4,408 bases of DNA. Origin: a virus (Duplodnaviria; Heunggongvirae; Uroviricota; Caudoviricetes). Below the pieces are notes generated by a model. It searched no databases and was not told where the DNA came from. It was given only the letters and a program-made list of their open reading frames with translations. Made by a program: the position numbers and the translations under genes. This document shows, piece after piece, positions 1 to 4,408 of this stretch. How positions within the stretch are numbered: the first letter of the stretch is position 1; each line of letters begins with the position of its first letter. The DNA is taken from IMG/VR virus record IMGVR_UViG_3300006879_000538, positions 1 through 4,408 of that record; one strand, written 5' to 3'.

Positions 1-1166
1 GTACAGGACGCAGATTCGTTGTATCTGATATCAATGTTTGATGACGACAAAGCCCCCGGGGATTTCCCAATCGTCAGTTCCTGAATATCGTAATAGCGTG
101 CATTCCCGCCACTCACCACGCCAAGATTCGCCGGTGAGTAAATGCGACTTAAAAGGACCGAATCACCAATCATCAGACTATTGATATAGTCGGAAATAGC
201 CTGCTGGATCTGCTGCCCTATCTGTGAGGTATAACCCGTAAAAACTTTTAATTTAATCCGGGCATAAACAGGTACATCACTGGAACGCGAGAATTTGATT
301 ACATGGGGATTGCCGTATTTATCCGGAACCGTAACGGATGTTGTACCGTGAGTGGCTGTCCCCTGGCCTTTATTCCCTCTGATAGCCTGAGCAATATCCG
401 TCACATCACCGCCATCCACAATTACAGCAACAGAGTGTGGCGGTAACCCATTACCGTCCTCCGAACCAGTATCGTTTTCATAGAGTTTGTGGCGGGTTAC
501 ACCGGTAACATTAGAAACAGCACCATCCAGTGCTTCAAATGGGGTTATTGATGGCAACGCAACACTTTGCGACTGGCGGATACGTAACTCAGCATCAGTT
601 TCTGCCGGAGAGCCAACAGTAGCCGCAGCAGGATTAGTTACCGAAACCCAGCCACGGGTTGGCGTATTAATTTCAGTGATAGTTCCAGCCAGCGCCGCCA
701 CTGCACCACTGACGGAACATGTTGCGGTCGCCATCACTGTACCATCCACGCCGACCACCACTGAAGCAGGCAAACGCCATATCACATTATTACTGTCTTT
801 CACGCTGCCATTAATGATGGTTGTTCCGGCAGTTCCTGTAAGAAGCAAATCAACCGTAGAGTTCGTCGCGCCTTTACGTGAAATACCATTTATTTTCACG
901 TTACTGGTCAGTGCAGCCCCATAGCCGGTTGCCGGTGAAAAACAGTTGTAGACAGTTATCGCCGTATTATTGGCATCATGAATCGCCAGCGCCATCAGAG
1001 CCACCATCTGGCCGTCTTTGCTGTCCGGTTCGAGGTAGGCATCACTGCCATAAATCTGCTGAAAATAGCTAATCAGGGTGCTGAGTATCGTCTGATAATC
1101 AGGCGCACTGATCCCCTCCGCGGTTACCTTTGCAGATAAACCGAGAGAATCAAGGTTCAGAGCCAT
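1..1166 (-). CDS. Baseplate J-like protein (Mu gp47 / P2 gpJ family), 3' end truncated by window edge
   Basis: ATG at 1166..1164 overlaps the stop of the upstream gene (TAATG); GGAGG lies 4-5 nt upstream. I hand-translated the frame from 1166 toward position 1 (about 388 codons, beginning MALNLDSLGLSAKVTAEGISAPDYQTILSTLISYFQQIYG) and found no stop. Family call is from position directly after V-like and GP46-like genes plus general sequence character, not from a search. Confidence 0.6.
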   Translation of the reverse strand, partial: MALNLDSLGLSAKVTAEGISAPDYQTILSTLISYFQQIYGSDAYLEPDSKDGQMVALMALAIHDANNTAITVYNCFSPATGYGAALTSNVKINGISRKGATNSTVDLLLTGTAGTTIINGSVKDSNNVIWRLPASVVVGVDGTVMATATCSVSGAVAALAGTITEINTPTRGWVSVTNPAAATVGSPAETDAELRIRQSQSVALPSITPFEALDGAVSNVTGVTRHKLYENDTGSEDGNGLPPHSVAVIVDGGDVTDIAQAIRGNKGQGTATHGTTSVTVPDKYGNPHVIKFSRSSDVPVYARIKLKVFTGYTSQIGQQIQQAISDYINSLMIGDSVLLSRIYSPANLGVVSGGNARYYDIQELTIGKSPGALSSSNIDIRYNESASC

Positions 1167-1519
1167 TACGCCTCCGATGTAACAGTCGTTATTCCATAAA
1201 GAGTGTCGATTTCAGCGGAAAACATGACACGTCGGGTCGTGGTATCCAGCGTCGTATTGAAAGAGAGGATTGATTTAACGCCCCGCGTTTCGAGGATGCG
1301 CTTACGGATCGCCAGGTTGTAGGTTTCCGGCTTCTGCTTACCGAGTACGGACTGGATCCACGGAGTCCCCTCGGTGGTGTCGAGAAACCATTGCCCATAC
1401 CACAATTCGAATCGCGTTTTTACCGCCTGCGCCACGGCCTCCGGTGAGTTAATCAGCCAGGTGTCATCACCGCTGCCAAAGGTGTAATCGCCATCGGCGT
1501 CTTCACGTCTGTATCGCAT
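1166..1519 (-). CDS. Phage GP46-family small baseplate protein (gp25/gpW-like wedge component), 117 aa
   Basis: ORF in the track (MRYRREDADGDYTFGSGDDTWLINSPEAV...). Its ATG overlaps the stop of the V-like gene (ATGA at 1517..1520) and its stop overlaps the J-like start. Size and position between V-like and J-like genes match the Mu gp45-gp46-gp47 arrangement. Confidence 0.65.
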   Translation of the reverse strand: MRYRREDADGDYTFGSGDDTWLINSPEAVAQAVKTRFELWYGQWFLDTTEGTPWIQSVLGKQKPETYNLAIRKRILETRGVKSILSFNTTLDTTTRRVMFSAEIDTLYGITTVTSEA

Positions 1520-2271
1520 CAGTTTACTCCGTCGGTATTGCTTCCACCGCGCTGAACACCACCATGAGTGTGCGTATCATCGATTGGCTTGCCGTTAGCC
1601 TTCACGCTACCCAAAAACTCAACAGCACCAGTAATTTTTGAAGCCACACCAGAAACAACAGACCCCACCATGCCCCCCATCCAGGTTAACAGGCCATGAA
1701 TGGTTACTTTCTCAGAAAAATCAGCCAGAGGGGCAACCACATCAAGGCCCCCCGGAGCAACAATTTTAATTTTCCCGGTATCAGGATTAAGCTCAAAATA
1801 GGTGCTGCCATCGTCACTACGCAACTGTGTGGCACTGGTATTAATACCGCTAATCTTCCTAGCCTGCGACTGGGGACCGACAATACAAAACGCATCCGAT
1901 AAATCATGCATTCTGTCATCAACAGGCTCCTGTATCCCGCCGTTCTGCCACCAGAAATCAATACAACGATCGGCAAAAACGACAAGACACTCATCCCCGG
2001 CTTTTACCGGAAAAGTCAACGTACAGCCTCCGCCGCGCGGAAATACCACCGGCACATCCACCAGTAGCGGGTAATTTTTGGTTACGCGGTTGCCGTCGTT
2101 GTCGGTTTCAACCGAACGAATAGCAGGCTGCACAACCGCCGTCACCGCGTCAGGATCGAATGACTGAACGATGCCAGGCAAAGCGACGCGGATCTGGTTC
2201 TTTGTGGTTTCCCGCTCGGATTTGAATGTTTCGGCAAGGTCGCCGCTGCGGGTCTGGTCAGATACTGCCAT
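1519..2271 (-). CDS. Baseplate assembly protein V-like / tail spike (Mu gp45-like), 250 aa
   Basis: ORF in the track. The segment PLLVDVPVVFPRGGGCTLTFPVKAGDECLVVFADRCIDFWWQNGG resembles the N-terminal OB-fold region of gpV-family spike proteins, and the C-terminal part is Gly-rich. GGAG lies about 7 nt upstream of the ATG at 2271. Synteny with the GP46-like and J-like genes supports the call. Confidence 0.7.
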   Translation of the reverse strand: MAVSDQTRSGDLAETFKSERETTKNQIRVALPGIVQSFDPDAVTAVVQPAIRSVETDNDGNRVTKNYPLLVDVPVVFPRGGGCTLTFPVKAGDECLVVFADRCIDFWWQNGGIQEPVDDRMHDLSDAFCIVGPQSQARKISGINTSATQLRSDDGSTYFELNPDTGKIKIVAPGGLDVVAPLADFSEKVTIHGLLTWMGGMVGSVVSGVASKITGAVEFLGSVKANGKPIDDTHTHGGVQRGGSNTDGVN

Positions 2272-2290
2272 TTGTTAGGCTCCAGAAAGC

Positions 2291-2314
2291 AAAAAACCCG
2301 CCGGATGGCGGGTT
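2291..2314 (-). terminator. Rho-independent terminator for minus-strand transcription, downstream of the HEPN gene
   Basis: Inverted repeat aacccgcc (2295-2302), loop ggat, ggcgggtt (2307-2314) on the plus strand. On the minus strand the GC-rich stem is followed directly by a T6 run (complement of a-run 2291-2296). It sits 18 nt after the HEPN stop (2332) and about 20 nt before the V-like start (2271). Confidence 0.6.
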
Positions 2315-2331
2315 CGTAAATAAACTTTTTG

Positions 2332-2712
2332 CTAGGCTACTTGGGATTTCATTTCTGCTATTTTGTCCAACATCTTGTTCACCACTGCAATAGATGAACT
2401 TGCTTCAGTTTGCAAAATAGTCTCTGTTAGATCGTAGTCCGCGCGCTTACGCTTCATTTTTTGCTGTTTGAGAACTGCCCCCAACTGGATAAGAGACATT
2501 AACTCATAAGGTTCATCCTTCCGCCTTGCATCCGAAATAAGATATTGAACAACTCCATCATGTGTTGTCGGCGGGCAACACGTCAAAAGGCCACATGTTT
2601 CATGGTAGAACGCATAGTATGCCCGTGAAATAGCACTTCTGAAACCAGACTCAATACCAGTGTCTAAACATGCACGGGATGCGTCAATGAACTCTTTTCC
2701 TTGGATACTCAT
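2332..2712 (-). CDS. HEPN-domain protein, putative RNase toxin/effector, 126 aa
   Basis: ORF in the track. Residues 29-58 (SRAYYAFYHETCGLLTCCPPTTHDGVVQYL) match the pattern I recall for classical HEPN proteins: an R-x6-H motif inside an RAYYA.FH helix followed by a conserved H.GV segment. The motif R30-H37 is encoded at 2602..2625 (RC = CGGGCATACTATGCGTTCTACCAT). Start ATG overlaps the stop of the upstream gene by 4 nt (ATGA). Confidence 0.7.
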   Translation of the reverse strand: MSIQGKEFIDASRACLDTGIESGFRSAISRAYYAFYHETCGLLTCCPPTTHDGVVQYLISDARRKDEPYELMSLIQLGAVLKQQKMKRKRADYDLTETILQTEASSSIAVVNKMLDKIAEMKSQVA

Positions 2713-3482
2713 ATCGTGAAGTGAATCTCCTGCCGATTACGCCCGCGGAACCAGGCCGTCACATTCTTTCCAGCGAAGATCTCATTCATTGCAATTTCAG
2801 TAGCAACGTCAATATCCATATCGGAAAGCATATCGGCATCCTCACATAAAACATCACAAACTATGCCAGCATCCCCATCCGGGCTTGTGACATAGTCATG
2901 AGAAATAGCTAAAACACCATAATTCTTAGCGACATTAGTAATTGTTCTGGAAAGAAGATTTATCTCATTCGTGCTTAAATCAGTCACACTTATGAATGTA
3001 TCTAATGCCCGTTTTTTTTCCATGATATCTGACTCCATGCTTTCTCGCTCGCTCTCACTTCCGATCATAGACAGAGCTTTTCGAGCAAAAAAGAGTGATA
3101 GTTCACCATCGCCGTCAGCATAGGCTGCATTCCTTGCTCGTATGCACAAAGCAAGGCTGGTAATTTCCCGAGCTAACCTCACAGCCTCTTCTCGGTACAA
3201 TTCATACTGTCCAGTATGACTGAGGTAAGAAAGATAATTTCTGGCTACTGTTTCGTCACGGTATGCAACTGCCTCCTGAAAAAAACCGACAGCTTCAACA
3301 TGTTGATGCGCAGCTCCATAAGCCAGAGCCAACACCATCAACTTAACTGGCTCATCAGGGATTTTGCCTGCTTCAGAGACAACTCGCTTTAGCGTAAAAG
3401 CATCCAGTTGCTGCCCTTCATCAATACGTGAAGTAAGCATCTCAAGCGTTTCATTCAGTTTGCTATACAGTGCAAGTGACAT
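2709..3482 (-). CDS. Hypothetical protein, 257 aa, operon partner of the HEPN gene (candidate antitoxin/sensor)
   Basis: ORF in the track. AAGGAGG lies 6 nt upstream of the ATG at 3482..3480. The N-terminal half (about residues 45-140) looks alpha-helical and possibly TPR-like (LALAYGAAHQHVEAVGFFQEAVAY...YLSYLSHTGQYELYREEAV). The C-terminal region is acidic (residues 202-229, DGDAGIVCDVLCEDADMLSDMDIDVATE). I see no Walker A motif and no clear GS...DxD nucleotidyltransferase signature. Confidence 0.65.
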   Translation of the reverse strand: MSLALYSKLNETLEMLTSRIDEGQQLDAFTLKRVVSEAGKIPDEPVKLMVLALAYGAAHQHVEAVGFFQEAVAYRDETVARNYLSYLSHTGQYELYREEAVRLAREITSLALCIRARNAAYADGDGELSLFFARKALSMIGSESERESMESDIMEKKRALDTFISVTDLSTNEINLLSRTITNVAKNYGVLAISHDYVTSPDGDAGIVCDVLCEDADMLSDMDIDVATEIAMNEIFAGKNVTAWFRGRNRQEIHFTI

Positions 3483-3533
3483 TAATCATCCTCCTTAACG
3501 GAGGAATTTATCATTGGAAGGCATCATCAACAA
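3483..3533 (-). promoter_or_regulatory. Putative sigma70-type promoter, palindromic element and SD for the two-gene operon
   Basis: Read on the minus strand: candidate -35 TTGTTG (3533..3528), 17-nt spacer, TG-extended -10 TAAATT (3510..3505), then the perfect palindrome TCCTCC-GTTAA-GGAGGA (3505..3489) whose downstream arm is the SD, then the ATG at 3482. Promoter hexamers are a modest match to consensus. Confidence 0.35.
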
Positions 3534-3680
3534 CCTGTTGTTTTATTCATTAATCCATATTCTAGACTAATGCTTTGCTCTTTTCTAAGGAGAGAAAGGA
3601 GAACTGGTTAAAATTTCTTACTCTCACCCAGCCACTTTTTTACAAGGGAAAGATTCGATGATTTTCGGCGCATCCATGAC

Positions 3681-4157
3681 TTAATAACCTTGAGATTTAG
3701 CAACGCGAATACCGGCCGCCATCCCATTGAAATCCCATGCGTTTTTATGGGCAATAGGATTACGTGTGTTGAAGGCATAGCGCTGGCCCATTTTCCATGC
3801 TGTATCGCTAACAGACTTATCTTGAGAGAGGTTTACCCACTCCTTTATGCCTTTGTAAACATAGGACTTACAATCATCCGTAGTTCCTTTCCGATTGGTG
3901 TAGGCATCCAGATCTTCGCATTCTTGAAAGGAGTTGCTGACTATATCCGCGAAATCATCAATGGTCATGGCGAATCTGCGACCATTCATAGCGAAAAAAG
4001 GAGTAGCAGAGGCGTAATGTTGCCACTGCGTAAACTTTTGCTGATCCATTAAATCAACAGCCATTTTTTCATACTTCCCAGGAGCGGATAATCCCGACAT
4101 CGGAACAAGTAAACTTATTGCAATAAAAATGGCTTTCTTATTCAATCTTATCCCCAC
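3681..4157 (-). CDS. Hypothetical secreted/periplasmic protein with N-terminal signal peptide (start codon uncertain: GTG 4157 or TTG 4145; track ATG 4226 less likely)
   Basis: The track ORF (3681..4226) contains an internal signal-peptide-like segment, LNKKAIFIAISLLVPMSGLSA-PGK, which only makes sense at an N-terminus. GTG at 4157..4155 lies 10 nt after AAGGAG (4173..4168); TTG at 4145..4143 is the alternative. The predicted mature protein has two Cys (QECEDL..., ...DDCKSY), compatible with a periplasmic disulfide. I recognise no family. Confidence 0.55.
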   Translation of the reverse strand: MGIRLNKKAIFIAISLLVPMSGLSAPGKYEKMAVDLMDQQKFTQWQHYASATPFFAMNGRRFAMTIDDFADIVSNSFQECEDLDAYTNRKGTTDDCKSYVYKGIKEWVNLSQDKSVSDTAWKMGQRYAFNTRNPIAHKNAWDFNGMAAGIRVAKSQGY

Positions 4158-4408
4158 CGATTCATTGCTCCTTGACTTTGAAGATCCGCCGCGCCACGCG
4201 CTTGGCACATCATATCCATGTACCACGCCTGGCCCCTTGTGTCACCAGTGTACATAATCCCGCGCACAATATAAACGCCATCCGTTGCGATGCTGGCAGG
4301 TTGTGCTGTGGTGCCGCTGAGCGTGATATTACCGTCCGTGTTCTGGTCGGTGATCTGACCACCAGCCATAGCGATATCGTTGTTCGACAACGCGGCGCGA
4401 TATACAGA
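4148..4408 (-). CDS. C-terminal fragment of an upstream phage tail/baseplate gene (possibly the baseplate hub, Mu gp44 / P2 gpD-like, by synteny), 5' end beyond window
   Basis: The minus-strand frame is open from the window edge (4408) to TAA at 4150..4148 (…SNNDIAMAGGQITDQNTDGNITLSGTTAQPASIATDGVYIVRGIMYTGDTRGQAWYMDMMCQARG…). The track's TTG start at 4390 is probably internal. Functional call rests only on position upstream of the V-like gene. Confidence 0.4.
   Translation of the reverse strand, partial: SVYRAALSNNDIAMAGGQITDQNTDGNITLSGTTAQPASIATDGVYIVRGIMYTGDTRGQAWYMDMMCQARGAADLQSQGAMNRWG

Follow-up and report, generated by a model that had tools for sequence, protein, structure and literature searches.

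A conserved, predicted intrinsic terminator at the downstream edge of the variable cargo slot that separates baseplate hub from spike in enterobacterial prophages

Morons are phage genes with a promoter and a terminator of their own and with deviant GC content, which can be expressed from repressed prophages. The founding example, gene 15 of HK97, is located inside the tail operon (PMC3594210). In P22-like phages the ant moron forms a single hypervariable slot before the tailspike gene in Q-dependent late operons. This slot lies between gene 16 and the tailspike gene, occurs in 10 types in 16 genomes and is missing in some relatives (PMC2629481). The defence hotspots of P2-like phages and P4 satellites lie outside structural operons (PMC9122126).

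The DNA analysed here is a stretch of 4,408 nucleotides (positions 1 to 4,408 of IMG/VR record IMGVR_UViG_3300006879_000538, Caudoviricetes), referred to as the window. All credible genes of the window lie on the minus strand (Table 1). The hub gene, of which the window holds the 3′ end, is ~355 aa long in relatives. The spike protein matches Pfam xxxxx_N (2.6e-44) and the GpV apex motif (1e-4), its score against TIGR01644 phage_P2_V being under the cut-off, and its homologues in relatives are annotated as 'baseplate spike' or 'membrane-puncturing spike'. The label 'V-like', given to this gene in an earlier note on the same DNA, is fair on the grounds of these domain matches. The gp25/W-like gene is a 'baseplate wedge subunit' in SEN34, and 'contractile injection system sheath initiator' is one of the feature names listed under the E. 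coli regions matching it.

Table 1 Features of the window
Feature	Positions	Strand	Remarks
Baseplate hub gene, 3′ end; upstream edge of the slot	4148..4408	(-)	Aligns with the 355-aa 'baseplate hub' of SEN34 and with E. coli homologues
154-aa first slot gene, signal-peptide-like N-terminal segment	3681..4145	(-)	ORF and sequence
AT-rich intergenic region	3483..3680	(-)	198 nt, 37% GC; upstream of the two-gene cargo
Segment of 55-60 nt common to 33 other E. coli genomes with different slot genes	3618..3680	(-)	
Sigma-70 promoter-like site TAGAAA-17-TAGAAT; candidate cargo promoter	3559..3587	(-)	Consensus match only
257-aa cargo protein, partner of the HEPN protein	2709..3482	(-)	PHROG 17809, 3.6e-99, unannotated
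126-aa HEPN-domain cargo protein	2332..2712	(-)	4-nt overlap with the 257-aa gene
Terminator hairpin GAACCCGCC-ATCC-GGCGGGTTT	2294..2315	(-)	9 pairs, 6 of them G-C; 4-nt loop
T/U-tract TTTTTT GC TTTCT, 3′ of the hairpin	2284..2296	(-)	Release point predicted at ~2291-2285
Shine-Dalgarno GGAG of the spike gene	2280..2283	(-)	8 nt to ATG; downstream of the predicted release point
Central baseplate spike gene (V-like, 250 aa); downstream edge of the slot	1519..2271	(-)	Pfam xxxxx_N, GpV apex motif
gp25/W-like baseplate gene, 117 aa	1166..1519	(-)	Overlaps the spike stop codon; SEN34 annotation
Baseplate J/gp47 gene, 5′ part	1..1165	(-)	Annotations in relatives

The flanks of the window match the E. 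coli phages vB_EcoM-689R2 and 611R5 at 97%, while Salmonella phage SEN34 (Brunovirus), Yersinia phage YP3 and Klebsiella phage Mulock are more distant members of the family. A match to the window was found in 373 of 5426 complete E. coli genomes (~7%). The whole window was found in none of these 5426 genomes, the middle being different, and the variable stretch always falls between hub and spike. A search with the spike protein as query yielded 134 further loci (viral contigs and one genome per species). Among the 119 loci having both flanking genes, 49 distinct slot contents were found, ranging from 417 to 2582 nt. The usual first slot gene encodes a small secreted protein of ~105-118 aa (NCBI STY1065/STY2022 family) and is followed by a variable second tier; in the window the 154-aa protein substitutes for this family. 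The hub-spike slot is a prophage cargo hotspot, not previously remarked, in E. coli and many other Enterobacterales. A literature search on the S. Typhi locus tags of the slot returned papers on diagnostic markers only, with no transcript data.

The downstream edge of the slot is occupied by a hairpin. On the minus strand, read 5′ to 3′, the order is a GC-rich stem-loop of 9 bp (2315-2294), UUUUUUGCUUUCU, GGAG (2283-2280) and the ATG of the spike gene (2271). A spacer of 16 nt separates the TAG stop codon of the 126-aa gene (2334-2332) from the hairpin, and a spacer of 8 nt separates GGAG from the ATG (2271-2269) of the 250-aa spike gene. In a terminator scan, the hairpin with its T-tract was the top-ranked terminator-like site of the window. 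The hairpin alone has a folding energy of -15.5 kcal/mol and its 84-nt context a fold z of -2.6 relative to shuffles. Hairpins of this quality, defined by 8 or more pairs with 6 or more G-C, a loop of 3-8 nt and a T-run of 6 or more, occurred in 0 of 1000 dinucleotide-preserving shuffles of the whole window, both strands being scanned. These results bear out the claim of the earlier note that a hairpin and T-tract precede the V-like ATG by about 20 nt, with GGAG in between; the span given there, 2271-2314, was right apart from the outermost G-U pair at 2315, which it missed. The GC-rich stem of ~5-14 bp, the short loop, the 3′ U-tract and the location after the last gene of a unit, by which intrinsic terminators are recognized, are all found here, and judged from its sequence the element is a canonical Rho-independent terminator. 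The hairpin is one-directional, because the plus strand has no T-run adjacent to it, and a terminator on the plus strand was ruled out for that reason. An Rfam scan gave no known RNA family at E <= 1. A dispersed repeat, a REP-like element or a recurrent module-boundary sequence was ruled out as well, since each locus has a single exact copy of the motif, as has the 40.7-kb genome of SEN34.

The terminator is widely conserved. A hairpin and T-tract before the spike ATG were found in ~114 of the 125 related loci analysed, 108 of these by strict detection and 6 as point-mutated or long-loop variants, and they stand behind at least 49 slot contents. In loci with the terminator the stem ends 15-24 nt ahead of the spike ATG. 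The element is kept down to 46% identity of the spike protein and across many enterobacterial genera, and Klebsiella phage Mulock also has it, with the stem CCCAC/GTGGG. The core stem CCCGC/GCGGG and the T-run hardly vary and are combined with at least 20 different loops; in an alignment of 32 sequences T29-T33 are invariant and the GGAG of the spike gene is conserved. Compensatory stems were found in L118 and Mulock (CCCACC/GGTGGG) and in L107 (CCCAGC/GCTGGG). Formal covariation is weak: 4 pairs changed on both sides, a result matched by 3 of 500 shuffles, and the overall score was not above that of shuffles. Covariation was dropped as proof of structure, the stems being conserved in sequence. 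Because of this weak covariation, the structure argument rests on the conservation of stem and T-tract, the free loops and the few compensatory changes. Transfer of the terminator together with this particular cargo was ruled out, since the cargo pair was found in 2 of 5426 E. coli genomes, both times in the hub-spike slot, and the hairpin is common to all cargo types. Comparison of the loci showed that the terminator persists through different cargoes. As far as such comparison reaches, the terminator is a backbone element of the phage that belongs to the slot, and not a part of this cargo.

The first gene in the slot of the window has a TTG start codon 2 nt past the hub stop codon. No promoter of its own is visible for this 154-aa gene in the window sequence, and it is probably co-transcribed with the hub gene. 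In 9 complete E. coli genomes this gene is combined with other cargoes in the second tier. The segment at 3618-3680 lies inside an annotated CDS in most of the E. coli genomes that share it and carries no annotated feature in three; it probably remains from the 3′ end of the first gene that is usual here, that of the STY1065/STY2022 family. No match was found for the 154-aa protein in Pfam, PADLOC, PHROG or NCBIfam, nor for the 257-aa protein in Pfam, PADLOC, NCBIfam or PDB sequences. Taking the three cargo proteins together, single-sequence searches were blank in PADLOC, Pfam and NCBIfam and gave unannotated families only in PHROGs. The HEPN identity of the 126-aa protein was revealed only by a profile of 8 slot homologues (25-39% identical), which matches the PDB HEPN entries 9xbd (6e-11) and 9xbc (5e-10) and also 2hsb (7e-6). 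One homologue matches Pfam HEPN at 1e-3. Invariant residues of this family include R25, S29, Y32, Y33, R88, D92 and Y93. The profile search of the PDB gave no match to HepS of Gifsy-1 (9OIJ/9OIK, named in PMC13043305). The commonest second-tier cargo of the slot is a pair of genes coding for a protein of ~245-270 aa and a HEPN protein of ~125-140 aa. HEPN pairs are among the gene types frequently expressed from prophages. Two other slots (L110 and L114) hold a small gene followed by a gene with a predicted product that starts like a Doc/Fic-type toxin, as seen by eye in the N-termini.

Slot and flanks also differ in base composition. The GC content is 0.43 for the slot overall and 0.36-0.38 for its intergenic part, versus 0.50-0.57 in the flanks (spike and W genes). 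The 257-aa gene is preceded by a strong Shine-Dalgarno sequence, AAGGAGG, inside the intergenic region, and together with the cargo pair this region is 99.3-99.6% identical in two other E. coli genomes. The promoter-like TAGAAA-17-TAGAAT (3587-3559) is a consensus match only, and the window contains no more such sites than expected by chance. A cargo promoter has modest comparative support, since TTGACT-17/18-CAnAAT or TAAAAT motifs occupy the corresponding place in divergent versions of the pair. In cargoes of the 689R2 type, which overlap the hub gene and have no intergenic space, no lysogen promoter is evident. The proposal of the earlier note that the cargo is expressed independently, for example in the lysogen, is plausible for expression from a promoter before the 257-aa gene, where the 198-nt region of 37% GC contains the promoter-like site, and does not extend to the 154-aa gene, which has no visible promoter.

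The late regulation of these phages is suggested by three fully annotated relatives, the prophage of E. coli AH19B041, vB_EcoM-611R5 and SEN34, all of which have a lambda-like late gene order: a Q-like antiterminator, promoter-like and strong terminator sites, holin, endolysin, spanin, terminase, head, tail and baseplate. The late block spans ~18-20 kb in these relatives, with co-directional lysis, head and tail genes. The prophage of AH19B041 carries the identical pair of 257-aa and 126-aa genes (99.3% identity); its Q-like protein belongs to PHROG 753 (2e-81) and two strong terminators are located ahead of its holin gene. The Q-like proteins of the other two relatives match PHROG 79 (4e-36) and PHROG 127 (1e-91), so that the three relatives use three different Q families, which is in keeping with lambdoid mosaicism. 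Strong sense-strand terminators between Q and holin were found in 3 of 3 relatives and promoter-like sites at the 3′ end of Q in 2 of 3. In the late region of 611R5 and SEN34, the slot terminator and the post-Q terminators are the only strong sense-strand terminators; in 611R5 the former lies ~18 kb downstream of the latter. No Ogr/Delta-type activator is annotated in the relatives. The Q gene itself would lie outside the 4.4-kb window, its presence being suggested by relatives that are 97-99% identical in backbone and cargo segments. In phage lambda, RNA polymerase modified by Q reads through terminators over the entire late operon.

From these data we infer that the terminator is the backbone downstream edge of a moron slot: it would end cargo transcripts in the lysogen, and Q-modified polymerase would read through it during lytic growth. 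We estimate the probability of this reading at about 0.8. In the lysogen, transcription from a cargo promoter would proceed through both cargo genes, 257-aa and HEPN, and the RNA would be released ~10 nt short of the spike ribosome-binding site. Terminated RNAs would not contain this site, because the predicted release at ~2291-2285 is upstream of GGAG, and the spike, baseplate and tail-fibre genes would thereby remain unexpressed. During lytic growth, polymerase from the late promoter, once modified by Q, would ignore the slot terminator as it does the terminators before the holin gene, and a single long late transcript would carry the hub, the cargo, the spike and the remaining baseplate genes. 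Late transcription would also cross the cargo, because there is no terminator between the hub and the cargo. The insulation of the cargo from the baseplate genes, proposed in the earlier note, thus appears to hold on the downstream (spike) side and not on the hub side. That late expression of the V-like gene may depend on antitermination, as was also proposed, is supported by the Q-like genes and post-Q terminators of the three annotated relatives. Read-through by Q appears to be the best-supported mechanism for spike expression, given the gene content of the relatives and what is known of lambda Q. Cargo would be swapped by recombination in the conserved flanks, with the terminator staying put.

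Natural variants of the slot bear on this reading. In three loci (L062, L081 and L083) the second-tier cargo gene is antisense and the hairpin at the spike gene is absent. The sole terminator-like hairpin of these slots is located where the first slot gene and the cargo gene converge. In the scan, both strands of L062 gave this hairpin; L083 gave it only in the sense orientation and L081 only in the antisense orientation. Since the antisense-cargo loci show the hairpin at the convergent junction, the terminator tracks the end of the cargo transcription unit. Prophages of Arsenophonus, Izhakiella, Sodalis and Erwinia tracheiphila, in which the hub stop codon overlaps the spike ATG, have neither slot nor hairpin. 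The terminator is present without any cargo gene in four loci of Erwinia, Kalamiella and Rosenbergiella (L121, L123, L126 and L131), which read hub stop codon, 5-25 nt, hairpin with T7-T9, GGAG and spike ATG. Either cargo was lost from these slots with the terminator left behind, or the terminator is useful in its own right. Because these four cargo-free loci keep the terminator, insulation of cargo would not be its sole reason, unless they are deletion scars. It may be speculated that the terminator is a purpose-kept, slot-defining element, maybe one that predates the cargo, providing an insulated docking site for defence genes within the baseplate operon and possibly serving also as a recombination boundary and as a U-rich enhancer of spike translation; we regard this wider view as rather unlikely.

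The same cargo-free slots in Erwinia, Kalamiella and Rosenbergiella prophages could be accounted for if the terminator were a partial attenuator that is active in lytic growth as well, lowering spike, baseplate and fibre relative to sheath, tube and hub, instead of or besides acting as an insulator. The position of the terminator divides high-copy from low-copy tail genes, and the ant moron of P22 is thought to affect the number of late-promoter polymerases that reach the tailspike gene (PMC2629481). However, the hub is likewise a low-copy protein, and the relatives with overlapping hub and spike genes do without the terminator. Moreover, Q-modified polymerase is generally highly resistant to intrinsic terminators. 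Attenuation is therefore considered unlikely.

In relatives with different cargo, homology starts at the 5′ foot of the hairpin. The coincidence of the homology breakpoints of many cargoes with this foot raises the question whether the main role of the hairpin is that of a boundary or landing pad in recombination, promoting cargo exchange, its terminator appearance being secondary. The loop variants include an exact reverse complement (ATCC versus GGAT), as expected from hairpin-mediated strand switching, and the hairpin is kept in empty slots. Yet a breakpoint at the first selected nucleotide is also expected from ordinary homologous exchange plus selection. The T-tract, which is always on the sense strand and invariant, would be needless for a recombination site, and the motif occurs once per genome and is absent from other module junctions. 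The antisense-cargo class, in addition, has no hairpin at the spike gene and has its terminator at the convergent junction instead. We consider a role mainly in recombination very unlikely.

It can hardly be maintained that transcription of the spike gene and the baseplate genes after it starts from a late promoter near the hairpin, as an operon of their own, even though the spike is V-like and gene V of phage P2 heads the Ogr-activated P_V operon with its activator-dependent promoter: the T-tract abuts GGAG and leaves no room for a promoter, no sequence upstream of the hairpin is conserved among relatives with different cargo, and the relatives encode Q proteins and no annotated Ogr/Delta-type activator. 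A P2-style late promoter before the V-like gene was ruled out, the sole TGT-N12-ACA match (2563-2580) lying ~300 nt upstream inside a cargo gene and being at chance frequency. That no promoter was seen in the gap before the V-like gene, as the earlier note remarked, agrees with the abutting T-tract and with the lack of conserved sequence upstream of the hairpin.

A backbone terminator that is read through by Q-modified polymerase would show how a prophage could carry host-benefiting genes, such as the HEPN-containing pair, inside an essential baseplate operon. Under the proposed mechanism the structural genes would stay silent in the lysogen while the late operon of the lytic phase stays unbroken. 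The hotspot has the layout hub, small secreted protein, variable genes, terminator, spike, and its conserved flanks can be used for mining new defence or toxin-antitoxin candidates.

Arrangements of this kind are well known and the regulatory principle is textbook knowledge; the locus is one well-conserved further example. Like a moron, the slot has variable genes between conserved operon genes, deviant GC content and a downstream terminator, the last being common to all cargoes. The lambdoid morons (HK97 gene 15; lambda lom and bor) resemble it as extra low-GC genes between conserved late genes, with an upstream promoter-like site, a downstream intrinsic terminator and a need for read-through in a Q-dependent late operon. 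The terminator of a lambdoid moron, however, travels with each moron, whereas here it is a fixed backbone element for dozens of unrelated cargoes and even for empty slots. Moreover, their tail is lambda-like while the tail here is contractile (hub/spike/W/J baseplate). The ant moron of P22 is alike in being one hypervariable slot in a Q-antiterminated morphogenetic operon, just before a tail gene for host contact, and insert-free relatives exist in both cases; 10 types in 16 genomes compare with 49 types in 119 loci. Morphotype and genes differ, the P22 slot holding immunity I genes and sieA and not HEPN pairs, and a conserved terminator abutting the downstream ribosome-binding site, present here, is not described there (PMC2629481). 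The defence hotspots of P2 and P4 share a fixed position in temperate phages at which accessory and defence genes are exchanged between conserved flanks, but that of P2, flanked by gpA and gpQ and adjacent to cos, is outside the late structural operons and so poses no read-through problem, while the hub-spike slot lies inside the late operon. With the Q/tR′ system of lambda, the relatives share a Q-like gene, promoter-like and strong terminator sites, holin, endolysin, terminase, head and tail in one direction, a likeness known from gene order and predicted sites, with three Q families in use among the relatives. Specific to the present locus is that one terminator stays fixed at the edge of the slot through many swaps of cargo, immediately before the ribosome-binding site of the essential gene that follows, in phages that combine a contractile tail with lambdoid regulation.

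The cargo of the window is one member of a strongly diversified two-gene family, which consists of a protein of ~245-270 aa and a HEPN protein of ~125-140 aa. Pairwise identity among the HEPN proteins of the family is only 25-39 %. The family was found repeatedly, in various genera, within the same slot between the baseplate hub and spike genes, and homologues of the window's pair are present in the related loci L010, L012, L054, L058, L066, L079, L088, L096, L104 and L117. PADLOC has no entry for this family, which may be a toxin-antitoxin or anti-phage system and is a candidate for either.

The first gene of the slot usually encodes a secreted protein of the STY1065/STY2022 family. In the window its place is taken by a gene for an unrelated secreted protein, next to which 55-60 nt are probably left over from the 3' end of the usual gene. 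This remnant is common to the window and 33 other E. coli genomes. First- and second-tier genes of the slot vary independently of each other, and of 5426 complete E. coli genomes none has the window's combination. The locus-tag numbers of STY2020 and STY2021, described in published literature as S. Typhi-specific PCR diagnostic markers, are next to that of STY2022, the tag naming the first-gene family. Their use as markers would fit a role as rare cargo with a putative location in the slot.

Features and their coordinates in the window and in related loci
Locus	Feature	Coordinates
Window	Two-gene HEPN cargo	2332-3482 (minus strand)
Window	Gene for 154-aa secreted protein	3681-4145
Window	Probable remnant of usual first slot gene	3618-3680
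Window	Loop of slot terminator	2303-2306
L003 (Salmonella phage SEN34)	SEN34_23, 45-aa ORF	5535-5672
L140 (E. coli AH19B041 prophage)	Q-holin terminator	17486-17511

Slots without any cargo gene also occur. L121, L123, L126 and L131 have a terminator only, at a site ~40 nt before the spike ATG, where a hairpin with T7-T9 begins 5-25 nt behind the hub stop and precedes GGAG and the spike ATG; L124 has a degenerate remnant. The cargo gene is antisense in the slots (~750-770 nt) of L062, L081 and L083. No hairpin was found at the spike gene in these three loci, and a terminator-like hairpin, AAAAAGCCTCA...TGAGGCTTTTT, separates the first slot gene from the convergently oriented cargo gene; in L062 it has T-runs on both strands.

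Between the spike and W-like genes, SEN34 harbours an additional ORF, SEN34_23. These two genes overlap in the window, unlike in SEN34, and the site may therefore be a second, smaller insertion point. The same enterobacterial prophage module was observed in a contig with the label Chryseobacterium sp. (L086; CACSKA010000001.1), and its spike shows 91 % identity to that of the window. Mislabelling or contamination of this assembly is probable.

The loop of the slot terminator is ATCC in the window versus GGAT, the exact reverse complement, in L011, L022, L049, L050, L074, L075 and L082, with identical stems. The difference resembles the outcome of template switching, with inversion of the hairpin loop, or of a flip of the entire palindrome. 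A Yersinia prophage (L107) has two tandem terminator hairpins upstream of the spike gene, 80 nt before the ATG. Directly 5' of the hairpin, L006, L076, L098, L118 and L122 carry the near-palindromic motif CCTGATATTTGATCAGT and L113 a degenerate copy; the hosts of prophages with this motif at the terminator are E. coli, Izhakiella and Serratia. The slots of L006, L076 and L122 also contain an antisense ORF of ~116-121 aa. One terminator between the late antiterminator gene Q and the holin gene of the AH19B041 prophage, which carries the same cargo pair, has the stem AACCCGCC...GCGGGTT, nearly the same as that of the slot terminator. Stems of this type appear to serve the phage as a generic design for its terminators.
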